Shown: positions 15,499-27,203, counted from the stretch's first letter. The stretch is 64,000 nt of DNA from Elsinoe ampelina (GCA_010093995.1 ML992505.1:226921-290920), one strand, 5' to 3'. The notes: generated by a model from the letters alone, not told the origin. Numbers and translations: made by a program.

Positions 15499-16200
15499 AT
15501 GTGGGCCGAAAATGAAAGCAAGGAGATCGACATTGATGCTCGGATAGTGGAATCTTGGGCGGAGATCGAAGACACCTGGGGCTTTGTCGTGTATCGATGC
15601 ACCTACAACGACGACGGAGATTGGAAGGAGTTCATGGAATATCTGACCGCATACGTACAAGAGGCACTACAAGCGTATGGGGTGGAGCATTTGATGAGCA
15701 AGCTGAACTGGCACGTACAGGAGGACAGCTCTTTCGAAGGAGCTACTAAAGCTACTATCAGGCAGTGAGTAAGCACTGGCGACCCACAAGTAATTGCACT
15801 AAGCTATGGAAGAACGTTTGAGGATTGGCGATCTCGTCAACCGCAGATAATATCCCCAAGAGGCGACTACTGTATCATGGTCGACCAAGACAGCCTGGAT
15901 TCAGTTCTCGTCGCCGGAAAGCCGCCCGATGACTTAAGTTGTCTCGAACCCTATGTCATTCTGATTGATCGTCAGTGGAGACAGCTCTATGAAGATGAGA
16001 CTGAGGTACCCGACGACAGCAAGCCAGATCCAGCCAGGCGGCTTCTCGACCAGGATTGTGAAGCACTCGAGGGATGCAGGATGGAAGATGTAGGCTGGAC
16101 TATGGTCAATATTGCCGCAGTGCCCATACGGATGTATTCCGTACTGGATACCGGATGGGACATTGTCTATCAGCGACCACCGACGGTGTCTAATCCATAA
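15499..16200 (+). CDS. Small acidic 'WGFVVYRCTY' family protein, copy A (217 aa)
   Basis: Intron 15765-15812 joins ...TWGFVVYRCTYNDDGDW...WHVQEDSSFEGATKATIRQ|TFEDW..SPRGDYCIMVDQ...GCRMEDVGW...WDIVYQRPP. Clearly paralogous to seven other copies in the window. Confidence 0.88.
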
Positions 16201-16572
16201 ACATGGATACGAGGCACGTATCTTGCATTGCATGGCCGCAGACTGTTCCGGAAATACATACAGATCGATTGGCAGGAGGTTGCTCCGTATCGACTCATAG
16301 TCAACAGAGCGGTTCGATTGAATTGATGACAAATTGGGAAAATCCAGGAAGTCGAGGGGTGATTGAATGATCCGAGAGTTCGCTCTATCCGTGGACGGCT
16401 GCGTTTGACTTGGCTGTTTCACCACTCGCAGCTGAAGAGTTCGCCGATTTTACCCACGCACCTCGCAATGTGCACGTGGAGTTCTGAAAATATCGACCGA
16501 CCTCCAACCACGTGGGCAGGTCGTAAAGTATGTCAACGCCACTCGCGGAGATCTTTAGTCCAAGGCCTGCAC

Positions 16573-17033
16573 ATGGGTGACACCTGCGATATTCTTAGCC
16601 TTCTAGAGGAGTGGGCCGACAGCACCTGGGGATTCGTCATCTACCGCTGCACATACTCAAGCGATGAGAAATGGGCTCATTTCATGGAGCTTCTTTACGT
16701 TCACTCCAAGGAATGGCTAGAAGGTGAAGACCTTGGGCAGATCGTTGACAGTCTGGAGTGGACTGTCCGGGAAAATCGCATGTTCGAAAGCGCATCGAAG
16801 CATGAATTGAGAACGTATTCCGTGGACGTTCCCACCTGCAGCTGACCTGACGCGCTGACATACATGACAGATCTTTCAGGGACTGGGTGGGCACCACATC
16901 TGCGGGCAAGAGAAAGGTAAACCCTCGTTACGATTATTTCATCGTAGCAGATCAGGAGTGCCTGGACTCCGTCCTCGATCGAGAAGATCCGACCGAGCTT
17001 GAAGTGAACGGCAGAGCGTACGTAAAATTGCTG
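16573..17033 (+). pseudogene. WGFVVYRCTY family copy B: lacks the C-terminal third and reads in frame into copy C
   Basis: WGFVIYRCTY, intron 16815-16870 at the family position, then SFRDW...PRYDYFIVADQECLDSVL...AYVKLL. The conserved VGW...RPP end is absent and no stop occurs before the copy C ATG at 17115. Confidence 0.7.
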
Positions 17034-17114
17034 AGGCATATACTCGAGTGTCTGTTCCCTCTGATTCGGGTCTTGCAACCCTCACAAGCTGGACCCATAG
17101 ACGATTCGAATAAA

Positions 17115-17792
17115 ATGGAAGACGAAGCCAGAGCAGTTCAGTCATGGACAGAGGTAGAGGGATTCTGGGGCTTTGTCATCCATCGATGCACGTACAGGGA
17201 TGATGACGAATGGGATCTTTTCATGGCCCACCTCAATGCCCATGCACAAGCGGAATTGGATGCCAACAATGCCGGCCATCTGATAAAGTCACTAAGATGG
17301 GAAGTCCAGGAGGATATTTCGTATCAGGGCGCTAGCAAGAGCTTCATCAGGCAGTGAGTGAGTCCGGTGATAGTCAGCCGAACTTGCTAAACAGTCACAA
17401 GGAGATTCCAGGGATGGAGAGAGAAGCAGGGTCGAATTACATCGCCACGGGGCGACTACTGCATTATGGTCGACCAGGACAGTCTAGATTCTGTACTTGT
17501 GGCTGGGATACCACCTGACTTCGATTCAATGACAGAGCCCTACGTTGATCTAATCGATCGTCGCTGGAGACAATTATACGTCGACGACACAGAAGTCATC
17601 GGCTCCGAAGAGCTTGACCCAGCGAAGCCTCTCATGGACGAAGGGTGTGAAGAAGTCGAAGGTTGTAAGATGGAGAACGTAGGCTGGACTAGGGTCGACG
17701 TATCCTTGTTATCGGTTCGCCTTTTCACCATTCTCCACGACGTGGGCTGGGAGATCGTCTACAAACGTCCACCAGAACTCTCTAGCCCATAG
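17115..17792 (+). CDS. WGFVVYRCTY family protein, copy C (209 aa)
   Basis: MEDEARAV..FWGFVIHRCTY; intron 17354-17401; RFQGW..SPRGDYCIMVDQ...GCKMENVGW...WEIVYKRPP. Confidence 0.88.
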
Positions 17793-17993
17793 TTTAGCAC
17801 TCGCATGATGTCGAAGAAAGAACGGAAGCTAAGCATTCTTGCTGGAGATGAGCTATCGAATGCCCTGCCACGGGGGAGCGTTATGGCATTGTTTATATTT
17901 GATCTCGAGCTTGGTTATTCAACGTTGTCTCCAGTCTTGGCTTCGAACCTATCATCACCTAGGATCGAACATGGTGCTGGACGAACGGCCATG

Positions 17994-24311: not shown

Positions 24312-25019
24312 CTAAGGTACTGTGATTTCAGGCGGACGTTCATAAACGTGGTCCCACCCAATTTTGAGCAGGGATGTGTATGTGCGTACGGTCAGTGTCC
24401 CGATCCACGTATTCATCCAGCCAACATCATCCCTGGTGCAACCCTCTACCTCTGGATACCCTTGATCGGCAAGCTCCTTGCTGGATAAGTCTTCTTGGGC
24501 GGCGTTTTCATCATCGCTGAAGGGTTCATAGGAGCCATCTGCGAATAGCCTTTTCCATTGTCTGTCGATTATGATCACGTGGGCCTCGTCGTCTGGGTCG
24601 CTGTTGGGGGGTGGTGTTGCCTCGAGTACAGAGTCAAGTGCTTCTTGATCGACCATCACGCAGTAGTCTTCGCGTGGGGTTGATAGATTTTCGGCGTTCT
24701 GAACGTACTTTTTGAATTCTCTGATCAAACACTCAGATTCATGATCCGAGGTGGAGAGCAATGCAAACAACAAGACTTACCGACGAATGTATGTAGTAGA
24801 GGCTTCATCATACGACGGATCTTCTTGCACGTCCCAGTCTAGAGACTCCATGAGGTCTTCCGCGTCGCTACTCCGGAGCTCGTGTCTAGCATAATCATTC
24901 AGTAGTCGCATGAAGGTCGACCACTGCTCGTTGTCTTTATAGGTGCAGCGATAGACCACAAACCCCCACTTCCCAATGCTCTCAGCCACAGCGCGGACAG
25001 ACGCCGCTTCGTCAGCCAT
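24312..25019 (-). CDS. WGFVVYRCTY family protein, copy F (215 aa)
   Basis: KWGFVVYRCTY; intron 24721-24780; EFKKY..TPREDYCVMVDQ...GCTRDDVGW...WDHVYERPP. Confidence 0.88.
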
Positions 25020-25343
25020 GATGTTGAAGAGGTAGATGTCCTTCACAATTTGACCGCTTCAACTTCGGGATCAAAGTCAGGTACCGGTACAGCTCGACCC
25101 TGTGATGTTGTCTGTCACACTGTTTGTTAGATGCCGCTTGTACCGCAATAAATTTGACTTACGGTAGAGACAAATAACGGCGTTCCTTCTGTCGGGCGGA
25201 TTCGTGAGCATCAACATGAGTGCCTTTCACACCAGTACGCTACAGGAGTCGGGAGATGTTCTCAAGAGTAAACAATACAAGATCTCGGAAACGCTACGTA
25301 TGACATGCTCAAAAGCTAAAGCCACGCCTTTCAAGCCAGACGT

Positions 25344-26038
25344 TCAAGGGGAGGACATTCGCGGCGGTCTGGCGTAGCAATGATCCCAACCAATCGCATC
25401 CAGAGACACAAAGGTGCGGACGGCGAGAATGGTCATGTCGGTATACATCCATCCGACGTCTTCCATTCTACAATCTTCAATTGGCTCGCAGCCCTCGTCG
25501 ACGGGCTCGCGAGACTCTCCCTCGCCTGTTGCCAGGTCATCGCCGCTGTCATACGTCCCATCTTTGTACCTCTGTCTCCAGGTCTTGTCGAGCAAAATGA
25601 CGTACGGCTCTTCTGAAGGATCATCATCTGGAGGTGGCTCCGCTGCCAGTATCGCTTCTAGTGCGTCTTGGTCTATCATAACGCAGTACGACCCACGTGG
25701 CGAGTAAATTTCACCGCATTGCTCGGACCACTCTCTGAACTTCCTACATTACTCAGTCGGCGCTTTCAGAGAGCAGGACTTACACGATCAGACCTTCTGA
25801 TGTAGCGCTTGCTGGCGCCGTCATAGGATGGATCTTCTTGCACAGCCCAATCAAGGCTGTCCATAAGATCCGTCGAGTCTCGACTTTCAAGAGAATCTCT
25901 TGTAAAGGCGTTGAGCCTCTCCATGCCCTCTGTCCACTCACAATCGTCCTTGTATGTACAGCGGTAGACCACGAAGCCCCAGACTCGGTCATGCTTGAGC
26001 CAGGCCCGTATTGCGTGATTGTCCGAATCATCCCCCAT
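25344..26038 (-). CDS. WGFVVYRCTY family protein, copy G (214 aa)
   Basis: VWGFVVYRCTY; intron 25744-25793; KFREW..SPRGSYCVMIDQ...DCRMEDVGW...WDHCYARPP. Confidence 0.85.
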
Positions 26039-26469
26039 TGCGGATCACCCTTTGTAGTTGTAGTTGAATGCGAAGTCAGACAGATCCAAGATAGACGGGG
26101 GGTGACCCAGTGTTTCAGCTTTGCCGTGCACCGAAATTAAGTCACATAGAGTACCGGGAAATGCGCCAAGAAACAGTCTCAGAGACACCAACAGCTTGAT
26201 GGAAATGATAGTGCCTTCTTTGCAAGTAGGGTTTCTCCATACCGAATAAGGTCTCCCAGCTTGAGCCCACGTTGACTGATACTATCCAGCAGCCCCAAAG
26301 ACCAGCGGCCACAACATTGAATGAAGCAAGACAGAGAATGGCAGGAGTGGCAACATCGCAAAGGCCTTTCCCACTGATCGATCCTTCATGGGATGTCGTG
26401 GAATGGTCGGCACCGCGAAAGTAGCCAACAATGACGAATCAGATTGATCAATGTCTGATGACCATGCCA

Positions 26470-27203
26470 TCACATCGCTCTGACTACAGCAGGTGGACGC
26501 TCGTAAAATTCGTCGAACTTCTCGCTGCACATCGCCACGAATGCTCCAGGTAGGACGGACACAGCATCGAGGATGATCCATCCCACGTACTCTCGAGTCA
26601 AGCCTTCCAACGGTTCATCCGGATCCAAGATATCTCCCATGTCAACCTCGTCGATCTCATCCCTTTCGTCCTCATCACCCTCGTCTTCATCGACCTCTTC
26701 ATCCAAGCCGTCGTCATCGTCCTCGTTGTCGGGCGTTGCGTTGGGATCGAACCGTGAGCTGATCAAGTATACAAAGCCGTTACTAGTGCGATCTTGTCGT
26801 GGGATCTTTTCGGCTTGCAACACAGAATCCACGCAATCCTGATCGGCCATAAGACAAAGCGAGTACCGAGGACTAGATGTTGTTTTGCTCTGGTCTTTGA
26901 TCCAGTCCTTGAAATGTCTAAGACGTCAGAGGTGATGGAAGATATACGAGGAGGGACTGACTCTCGAATCCTAGCTTTGGAGGCACTCTCGTATGCATGG
27001 TCTTCTTGCACACACCAGTCCATAGTCTCCAGCAAATCCACGCTACTCTCTGCGTCGAGTTCTTTTCGAGCGCGTTCGCTCAGAATATCAATGAATTCAT
27101 TCCATTCACGGTCGTCTTTGTATGTGCATCGGTAAGTGACGAAACCCCACCTGGGATCTTTAGTCTTTCGTAACAAGCCGCGCAGAAAGTCCGCGTTTGA
27201 CAT
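26470..27203 (-). CDS. WGFVVYRCTY family protein, copy H (229 aa, long acidic insert)
   Basis: RWGFVTYRCTY; intron 26918-26961; HFKDW..SPRYSLCLMADQDC; D/E-rich loop; EYVGW...FDEFYERPP. Confidence 0.88.

Follow-up and report, generated by a model that had tools for sequence, protein, structure and literature searches.

The window examined here, 64 kb of the genome of Elsinoe ampelina, the fungus of grapevine anthracnose, harbours at 15499-27203 eight homologous two-exon loci, all paralogues within a large Pezizomycotina family of uncharacterised proteins of about 200-220 amino acids. Because the acidic, non-secreted copies adjoin two genes resembling those of killer-toxin chitinases, they are put forward as a candidate novel type of self-protection (immunity) factor in fungi. 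The family proteins would act inside the cell as antidotes within zymocin-like killer systems and, judged by eye and by length, would form a family separate from the known Imm proteins, a reading to which we give a probability of about two in five. Killer-toxin-like chitinases of group C, together with the LysM genes next to them, have long been studied as weapons in antagonism between fungi; their tie to zymocin-like toxins was made only recently, and most toxin groups still lack an identified self-protection factor.

The family has expanded in E. ampelina to form two four-locus arrays (Table 1), whose members match one another by tblastn with E values from 1e-14 to 1e-29; the same method detected no further copy in the rest of the 64 kb. 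The earlier note had announced an eight-member family: the eight homologous loci hold, while eight intact members do not, B being truncated and E broken. The full-length members are A, C, D, F, G and H, and five to six of the eight loci are intact. Every copy carries one phase-2 intron at the equivalent place, and six copies are transcribed and spliced, the introns measuring 48 (A), 56 (B), 48 (C), 60 (F), 50 (G) and 44 nt (H) in the RNA contigs. The 44-nt intron that had been attributed to both E and H is spliced in H, while in E it was unspliced in all three covering RNA contigs.

Table 1. Positions, structure and transcript support of the family loci and of the adjoining genes X1 and X2 in the window.
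Feature	Strand	Span	Structure	Product	RNA contigs	Annotation
A	+	15499..16200	exons 15499-15764, 15813-16200	intact, 217 aa	intron confirmed, 3 runs	identical to E. ampelina protein P0001
B	+	16573..17114	exons 16573-16814, 16871-17114	truncated, ~162 aa, subtype 2-like	intron spliced, 3 runs	B+C fusion, P0002
C	+	17115..17792	exons 17115-17353, 17402-17792	209 aa	intron spliced	B+C fusion, P0002
D	-	17994..18682	exons 18438-18682, 17994-18387	intact, 212 aa	splicing not seen; single covering contig, unspliced	model equals P0004
E	-	23749..24116	exon 1 23875-24116, intact; predicted 44-nt intron 23831-23874	remnant, subtype 2		
F	-	24312..25019	exons 24781-25019, 24312-24720	intact, 215 aa	intron spliced, 4 runs	exon 2 only, P0027
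G	-	25344..26038	exons 25794-26038, 25344-25743	intact, 214 aa	intron spliced, 3 runs	model equals P0003
H	-	26470..27203	exons 26962-27203, 26470-26917	intact, 229 aa, subtype 2, longest acidic loop	44-nt intron spliced, 4 runs	
X1	+	20160..22664	introns 21516-21565, 22034-22085	~800 aa by model	both introns spliced	
X2	+	27800..30650	exon structure partly resolved	X1 paralogue		

Several copies bear the signs of a birth-and-death process. In B some 54 residues of exon-2 similarity remain, the VGW and Y.RPP blocks are missing, and the frame meets no stop ahead of the ATG of C and reads into that gene. In E, exon 2 is reduced to a stub of about 25 residues that contains a TAG stop in frame (23803-23805), and similarity ceases at 23749. 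Gene C of the window has a His at a nearly invariant Tyr (VIHRCTY); in other strains the Tyr is present, but the gene is interrupted by the nonsense mutation W135* (17566 G>A), found in three runs of two studies. The copies are old, since almost nothing aligns between them at the DNA level apart from exon 2 of A and C (68%, 259 nt) and two brief segments of exon 1. The two subtypes distinguished earlier are real: subtype 1 (A, C, D, F and G) displays M(V/I)DQ and subtype 2 (B, E and H) PRY...ADQ.C, and the tree groups {A,C,D,F,G} with an SH-aLRT of 95 and {E,H} with one of 98, leaving B unplaced.

The alignments display the conserved blocks that had been listed (WGFVxYRCTY..D..W..F, L.W.VQED..Y.GASK..IR, F..W, PR...C.MxDQ, VGW and Y.RPP) as well as the variable acidic loop, which is longest in H. 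About 19 residues, many of them aromatic or charged, are nearly invariant across 98 homologues, and by secondary-structure position they map to the ends of beta1 and beta3 and to the C-terminal tail; the polar ones are R33, R88, R105, D113 and R210. The most variable stretch is the low-complexity D/E loop. The six full-length Elsinoe proteins have net charges between -20 and -32, and the pI of 78 fungal family domains ranges from 4.1 to 5.4 (median 4.58). No signal peptide was found by eye in the Elsinoe copies or in those linked to chitinase/LysM genes. Many homologues have Arg/Ser-rich N-terminal extensions which, by eye, resemble mitochondrial presequences. Synonymous sites are saturated in all 15 paralogue pairs (pS 0.76-0.92, pN 0.27-0.48), so that these pairs give no reading on diversifying selection. 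Of the immunity-like role put forward in the earlier note, the diversifying selection on a binding surface was therefore not shown, while the role itself gains support from linkage, acidity, the lack of a signal peptide and the decaying copies.

The AlphaFold model of the family protein is confident (pLDDT 93.7) and presents an alpha/beta fold. Its best structural match is GlyRS (2pme_A; Z 7.2, rmsd 3.3 A, 112 of 217 residues), in a Z range that is typical when there is no true match, followed at Z 5-6 by the Pol gamma accessory subunit and domains of HisRS, ProRS and ThrRS; Foldseek returned nothing at E<=1e-3 (best E 0.058). The likeness to the class II aaRS anticodon-binding domain is thus weak in fold and is accompanied by no sequence similarity. 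Homologues amount to 1483 cluster representatives at E<=1e-3 and 727 at E<=1e-10, those with names being without exception ascomycete hypothetical proteins, and Pfam contains no entry for the fungal family.

By profile comparison the family is probably a remote relative of DUF6924 (PF21962) from actinobacteria. The earlier likening to DUF6924 holds as probable remote homology and not as membership, gene A scoring 14.5 bits (E 0.046) against a Pfam gathering cut-off of 24.4 bits. PF21962 was weakly matched by 20 of 98 members at E<=1 (best E 7.4e-5), far above any other family, and gave no match among 14 exon pieces of the window copies. With hhalign, the fungal family and 11 actinobacterial DUF6924 proteins aligned at 84.5% probability (E 6.9e-6) over just 56 N-terminal columns, and a structure search of the ESM Atlas retrieved an actinobacterial DUF6924 cluster with TM values of 0.52 (query) and 0.62 (target) over 144 residues, which lie under the bar for naming a family. 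The N-terminal halves share a beta1 'VV(R/Y)R(T/C)(D/T)(F/Y).DD..W' followed by 'V.(D/E)D....G(A)(T/S)', and the near-invariant polar residues are partly common to both, an R, D, W, D, R subset being invariant in DUF6924 as well. Acidity (pI 4.05-4.5 in 10 of 11 bacterial proteins) is shared as well, and so is tandem occurrence: in 5 of the 19 genomes with DUF6924, copies lie together at 7 places, either as two domains of one protein or in neighbouring genes. The fungal proteins differ by being about 70 residues longer, with the acidic loop and an EGC..DVGW..Y.RPP C-terminus.

DUF6924 is present in 19 of 301 Actinomycetes genomes, and we found no literature naming it or PF21962. Its neighbours at 20 actinobacterial loci are heterogeneous, metabolic or regulatory; none of the 20 has a recognisable toxin domain adjoining, and no link to a chitinase or LysM gene was seen in the actinobacterial genomes examined. 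One WXG100-like protein lies 5 kb from a DUF6924 gene, and one locus has a 761-aa unknown ORF directly upstream, inside a mobile element. Immunity proteins of bacterial polymorphic toxins are small, acidic and cytosolic, and they form tandem arrays of diverged polyimmunity genes with orphan and decaying members. The family resembles them in these traits, its cytosolic location being predicted, and both have bacterial and eukaryotic homologues; unlike them, DUF6924 lacks an adjoining toxin gene at the 20 loci.

These bacterial neighbourhoods bear on another explanation, which we regard as possible but somewhat unlikely, namely that the family protein works inside the cell as an enzyme or ligand-binding protein, is co-located and co-regulated with chitinase/LysM genes and neutralises no toxin. 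It would act on breakdown products of chitin or GlcNAc, or on a cell-wall stress signal, and the arrays would be ordinary tandem duplicates. The metabolic or regulatory company of DUF6924, the near-invariant residues with their subset shared by the bacterial proteins, the weak fold likeness to nucleotide- or RNA-binding alpha/beta domains (Z 7.2) and the prevalence of unlinked, single-copy fungal loci described below all agree with it. However, no enzyme or ligand-binding family was matched in Pfam, NCBIfam or PDB sequences, the extreme acidity and the D/E loops are unusual in such enzymes, pseudogenised and nonsense copies speak against a housekeeping need, and the linked genes encode secreted attack or defence proteins whereas the family protein is not secreted.

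X1 and X2, one beside each array, encode predicted secreted pro-proteins that have lost the chitinase part and kept its C-terminal module behind a Lys-Arg site. X1 comprises an N-terminal hydrophobic stretch (a signal peptide by eye), a Cys-rich and Gly-rich hydrophobic N-domain, an S/T-rich linker and the site DLEKR|SS, followed by the module (AVEHIVE|LQ...). X2 is 54.5% identical to it over 184 aa of the N-domain, and also has a Lys-Arg site (LMKR|GE), a VTEHILE|LQ motif and the module. An HMM built solely from chitinase pieces matched, among 1311 six-frame ORFs, exactly X2 (E 1e-8, in ORF 29297-29980), X1 (E 1.5e-8) and a gene of the metagenomic locus L234 (E 2.3e-7), and in all of these a Lys-Arg site stands ahead of the module. 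No GH18, CBM18 or LysM domain was found in the window (GH18/CBM18 at E<=1e-4).

Elsewhere in fungi the association reappears with the chitinase in place. Among 36 distinct metagenomic fungal loci with at least 2 kb of flank, a GH18/CBM18 chitinase, a LysM-only gene or an X-like gene lies beside the family gene in 10 as a raw count of adjacencies, and 26 show no such linkage; with at least 8 kb of flank the figure is 6 of 19. The family gene is single in 31 of 32 long loci, L234 being a second array in which three copies flank an X-like gene. The chitinase is present in eight related metagenomic lineages, with a CBM18-GH18 part, a Cys-rich region, a dibasic site and the C-terminal module, and one arrangement, chitinase <-> LysM, LysM, family gene, is found repeatedly, in four lineages (L180/181, L183/242, L203-209 and L196). 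Linked copies fall into three separate tree clades, with the Elsinoe group as a fourth, and LysM and family genes are annotated as fusions in A. flavus (P0151) and Cercospora (P0086). A tblastx comparison of the linked loci detected no other conserved gene, either past the family gene or in the interval from chitinase to LysM. The genomic coupling of the family to chitinase/LysM loci is very probably real.

This coupling must be set against neutral birth-and-death of a dispensable family, in which old duplications, relaxed constraint and slippage in the acidic loop would proceed with no toxin-related function and linkage would be a by-product of dynamic, duplication-prone regions. Such decay would suit the truncated, broken and nonsense copies, the concentration of variability in the D/E-rich loop, and the saturated synonymous sites with pN below pS. 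We consider it improbable, since four lineages have the same gene order and four tree clades show linkage, the core is strongly conserved over the 98 homologues, and six copies are transcribed and spliced.

As far as the accessible part of a survey extends, clusters of C-II chitinase, gamma-toxin and LysM genes in Pezizomycotina have no identified immunity genes for toxin groups P2-P8, unidentified cluster ORFs are proposed as immunity candidates, no clusters are reported from Dothideomycetes, the class of Elsinoe, and no description of a fungal DUF6924-like family appears (bioRxiv 10.1101/2024.10.25.620242). The same excerpt aligns the chitinase C-terminal region with yeast alpha/beta precursors and describes gamma-toxins as small secreted proteins with Glu-8 after signal cleavage (bioRxiv 10.1101/2024.10.25.620242). 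Yeasts maintain as many as 16 Imm paralogues in an array (PMC11848437), some sites of Imm proteins being reported under positive selection (PMC11848437; bioRxiv 10.1101/2024.10.25.620242), and their canonical immunity factors measure 353-452 aa (PMC13442484). To the extent of these excerpts, Imm (K. lactis ORF3, M. acaciae ORF4, D. robertsiae ORF5 and Pezizomycotina Imm-P) and the family are alike in being non-secreted, in lying beside killer-toxin chitinase genes and in forming multi-copy paralogue arrays; the family proteins are shorter (~215 aa), and by eye their motifs are absent from the Imm-B alignment. Likewise, Pezizomycotina killer clusters and the linked loci share a large chitinase with a C-terminal region, adjoining LysM-only genes, introns and a patchy, mobile distribution. 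The linked chitinases carry CBM18, and no toxin candidate was seen. X1 and X2 lack GH18 altogether; of the zymocin-like traits, the window has the chitinase C-terminal module, by HMM match, behind a dibasic site.

A gamma-toxin gene is part of zymocin-type loci; none was identified beside the family in the window or the linked loci, where toxin diversity is too great to exclude one. The family protein itself might be the toxin, analogous to the gamma subunit and carried by the C-terminal module of the chitinase or of X, as it is the sole conserved gene of the clusters that is neither chitinase nor LysM and shows weak fold likeness to tRNA-binding domains. This is highly improbable: it has no signal peptide, in contrast to the secreted gamma-toxins, it is strongly acidic, and arrays with decaying copies suit a defence more than a weapon.

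According to the antidote reading, the family proteins would remain in the cytosol, where they would bind and neutralise a toxic protein brought in by such delivery systems, in analogy with the action of non-secreted Imm against yeast zymocin-like toxins. The toxin might come from the fungus itself or from a competitor, diverged copies in an array would allow a wider set of toxins to be countered, and those that had become superfluous, such as B, E and C, would decay. A fuller version, which we advance tentatively and judge rather unlikely, holds that the DUF6924-like family is the missing antidote of filamentous-fungal killer-toxin-like chitinase systems that have no yeast Imm homologue, sharing ancestry with actinobacterial DUF6924; the E. 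ampelina array would be defensive, like the Imm arrays of budding yeasts, and X1 and X2 would be chitinase-less toxin-delivery proteins or toxin pro-proteins released at the dibasic site. The near-invariant polar residues common to DUF6924 also fit a ligand or catalytic site. Counted against immunity are, in addition, the lack of a gamma-toxin gene and of GH18 or LysM in the window, the mostly unlinked single-copy loci, the missing toxin partner of DUF6924, the absence of a visible likeness to Imm and the mitochondrial-looking extensions.

The family is nevertheless a concrete and directly testable candidate, conserved, non-secreted and acidic, which travels with killer-toxin-like loci, and the confident structural model together with over a thousand homologues makes it tractable. 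The bacterial DUF6924 domain thereby gains its first functional lead. X1 and X2 represent the predicted secreted module stripped of its chitinase, found in a crop pathogen whose class was reported to lack such loci. If the antidote reading is true, E. ampelina would have a killer system in Dothideomycetes, where the accessible part of the survey reports none so far.

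Eight family loci lie between 15499 and 27203 of the window, in two arrays each adjoining one of two paralogous genes, X1 or X2 (see the table). Every locus has one phase-2 intron, and its site, shared by all, follows directly on the 'IRx' of the GASK..IR block. The predicted product of gene A agrees with the annotated E. ampelina protein P0001 in every residue, and three further copies match annotated E. ampelina proteins. The conserved motif blocks and the variable acidic loop described in the earlier note were recovered in alignments of the copies, and its two subtypes both in the alignments and in the copy tree. 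The eight members that it counted are indeed homologous loci, but not all are intact, since B is truncated and E is a remnant with a TAG codon.

Features of the window, with the support found for each
Feature	Position (nt)	Strand	Remark
First array	15.5-18.7 kb	A, B, C +; D -	A, B, C, D
A intron	15765-15812		GT..AG joint in public-run contigs, exactly as predicted
B intron	16815-16870		GT..AG joint in public-run contigs, exactly as predicted
C intron	17354-17401		GT..AG joint in public-run contigs, exactly as predicted
Second array	23.7-27.2 kb	-	E, F, G, H
F intron	24721-24780		GT..AG joint in public-run contigs, exactly as predicted
G intron			50 nt; GT..AG joint in public-run contigs, exactly as predicted
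H intron	26918-26961		GT..AG joint in public-run contigs, exactly as predicted
X1	20160-22664		Both introns confirmed by spliced contigs
X2	about 27800-30650		Paralogue of X1
Contig over A, B, C	15400-17751		Sequencing run X2 (not gene X2)
Divergent segment	17181-17966		Gene C and C-D spacer
Antisense transcript over E	23274-23947	+	GT..AG intron 23481-23533
Joint between G stop and F start	25112-25162	-	51 nt, CT..AC, one contig
1933-aa ORF	3323-9124		No Pfam match at E<=0.01
653-aa ORF	35570-37531		No Pfam match at E<=0.01
1329-aa ORF	39051-43040		No Pfam match at E<=0.01

Copies A, B, C, F, G and H are transcribed and spliced, because the joints in the contigs sit exactly at the predicted introns. 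None of the runs behind the contigs is recorded as RNA, yet the contigs bear GT..AG joints; cover is absent for D in three runs and for much of 18.2-23 kb, and the reading of splicing is limited to the covered parts. Three copies are decaying. In B, similarity ends about 54 residues into exon 2 and no stop precedes the ATG of C, and the public annotation joins both as one fused protein. In E, exon 1 is intact, but of exon 2 a 25-residue stub is left, which holds the TAG in frame; the 44-nt introns proposed for E and H held for H, whereas that of E remained unspliced in three contigs. Copy C has His in place of a nearly invariant Tyr in the window, and in three runs from two studies it differs by five missense changes, one of them restoring the Tyr, by the stop W135* and by two synonymous changes. 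Of the 12 differences that separate the window from other-strain contigs, 8 lie in gene C and the other 4 in the C-D spacer, a local divergence hot spot around this decaying copy; no difference is listed for A, B, F, G and H where they are covered. One contig spans A, B and C with the three introns all spliced; B and C, at least, may form one transcript, matching the annotation, although a contig over two genes is no proof of a single transcript. Spliced contigs in three runs lie antisense over the E remnant, and no convincing ORF was found in this plus-strand transcript. The 51-nt joint may be an intron in the F 5'UTR or belong to a G-F read-through transcript. The copies diverged long ago, every one of the 15 full-length pairs being saturated at synonymous sites (pS 0.76-0.92), and the selection test proposed for the suspected diversifying selection is therefore unusable on the paralogues. 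The segment of highest variability is the low-complexity acidic loop.

In the proteins of X1 and X2 a hydrophobic N-terminus comes first, then a hydrophobic domain rich in Cys and Gly. An S/T-rich linker and a Lys-Arg site follow, ahead of a C-terminal module that bears the motif (A/T)EHI(V/L)E|LQ. No Pfam match was obtained for either at E<=0.01, with noise only at E<=1, and the top score of the N-domain in the ESM Atlas search was 0.79. From 77 metagenomic loci encoding family members, fetched to examine the pairing beyond the window, 55 were distinct, and their flanks were searched by Pfam and tblastn. A recurring cluster was found, in which a large chitinase (CBM18, GH18, Cys-rich region, Lys-Arg, C-terminal module) is transcribed divergently from two LysM-only genes, after which the family gene comes. 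The full order occurs in four lineages, and chitinase or LysM genes adjoin the family gene in five more. Hence the family is recurrently linked to killer-toxin-like chitinase/LysM loci, the linkage being seen, among distinct loci, in 10 of the 36 that have at least 2 kb of flank and in 6 of the 19 that have at least 8 kb; chance adjacency is assumed to be a few per cent at most, given the scarcity of such genes per genome. In the tree, the linked copies belong to three clades that lie well apart, and the Elsinoe group makes a fourth. Neither the interval separating chitinase from LysM nor the stretch downstream of the family gene yielded a further conserved gene. A single family copy is present in 31 of the 32 long loci. 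In the remaining one, L234, three copies surround an X-like gene, which shares the EHIIE motif and the intron position. An HMM built from the chitinase C-terminal regions alone found X2, X1 and this L234 gene and none other among 1311 six-frame ORFs, so that X1 and X2 are carriers of the chitinase C-terminal module devoid of the chitinase itself. An AlphaFold model of the module (13-row alignment) was too low in confidence to use (pLDDT 44.5), and a complex prediction made without alignments, with two pieces of the module and the family protein of one chitinase locus, L204, scored 0.00, which counts neither way. In two other loci the single family gene adjoins a 1439-aa CHAT-domain protein (L246:1429-5745) or a 2781-aa PAN-domain protein (L232:508-8850). 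Apparent fusions of LysM and family domains were rejected as real; they look like merged gene models because the domain orders are opposite between cases and P0151 has a dehydrogenase fragment.

Comparable nuclear clusters have been described in Pezizomycotina, in which a C-II chitinase homologous to the alpha/beta precursor of zymocin is accompanied by LysM-only genes and the gene for a small secreted gamma-toxin, and in some cases by a homologue of Imm, the immunity protein of zymocin-like killer systems (Heneghan, Salzberg and Wolfe, bioRxiv 10.1101/2024.10.25.620242). That preprint reports that no such cluster was found in Dothideomycetes and that the immunity genes of toxin groups P2-P8 are unidentified, the candidates being unidentified ORFs inside some clusters. 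No description of the present family was seen in its text, and its supplementary tables may list the family as an unnamed ORF. Canonical immunity factors have 353-452 aa (PMC13442484), and budding-yeast Imm arrays, of up to 16 paralogues, are interpreted as a defence against foreign toxins (PMC11848437). The Elsinoe family looks distinct from Imm, because an Imm-B alignment inspected by eye has none of its motifs.

The family is large and conserved: the copy profile matched 1483 cluster representatives at E<=1e-3, of which 727 reach <=1e-10 and 73 reach <=1e-30, and all named hits were 'hypothetical protein' of ascomycetes (Aspergillus, Penicillium, Colletotrichum, Cercospora, Hortaea, Cordyceps and others). 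No Pfam family scored above threshold, 14 exon pieces giving sub-threshold noise only; a search of NCBIfam with 8 members gave no match, the PDB sequence profile 0 matches at E<=10 and Foldseek against the PDB none at E<=1e-3. The actinobacterial family DUF6924 (PF21962), which the earlier note had named, was the single recurrent Pfam family. We regard it as a distant relative, given weak matches from 20 of 98 members, an 84.5% probability in profile-profile comparison, limited to the N-terminal 56 columns, and a structural row of the ESM Atlas; membership, however, does not follow, as no Pfam match reached threshold. No paper was found that names DUF6924 or PF21962. The AlphaFold model of the family is confident (pLDDT 93.7, pTM 0.90) and shows an alpha/beta sandwich. 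Among solved structures it comes closest to the anticodon-binding domains of class II tRNA synthetases, with Z of 5-7, a range rated uninformative. Across 98 homologues 19 residues are near-invariant, and the invariant polar residues common to the family and bacterial DUF6924 suggest the main rival explanation, a ligand-binding or enzymatic role, which we regard as somewhat less likely than an antidote role.

In bacteria, a sample of 301 Actinomycetes genomes included 19 that encode DUF6924, often as two domains per protein or as adjacent genes. Neighbours in 20 loci were mixed (regulators, methyltransferases, transporters, phosphotransferases and mobile-element genes), with no recognisable toxin among them, and speak neither for nor against an immunity role. 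In one actinobacterial locus (L159:5465-8211), a 138-aa DUF6924 gene begins 51 bp after the end of a 761-aa ORF, and the surrounding region also encodes a TrwC relaxase and an integrase; the arrangement is similar to that of a toxin-immunity pair, but the upstream product matches no Pfam family. Elsewhere, a 614-aa actinobacterial ORF (L165:7827-9668) has a C-terminal DUF6924 domain, and its N-terminal 477 residues have no identity beyond a weak B_lectin match.

The family is acidic throughout (median pI 4.58) and no signal peptide was apparent by eye. Many non-Elsinoe homologues, P0052, P0225 and P0016 among them, carry Arg/Ser/Pro-rich N-terminal extensions of 40-100 residues that look, by eye, like mitochondrial presequences. 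Immunity was the role proposed in the earlier note, and the family proteins may act as cytosolic antidotes, a reading to which we assign a probability of roughly 40%.
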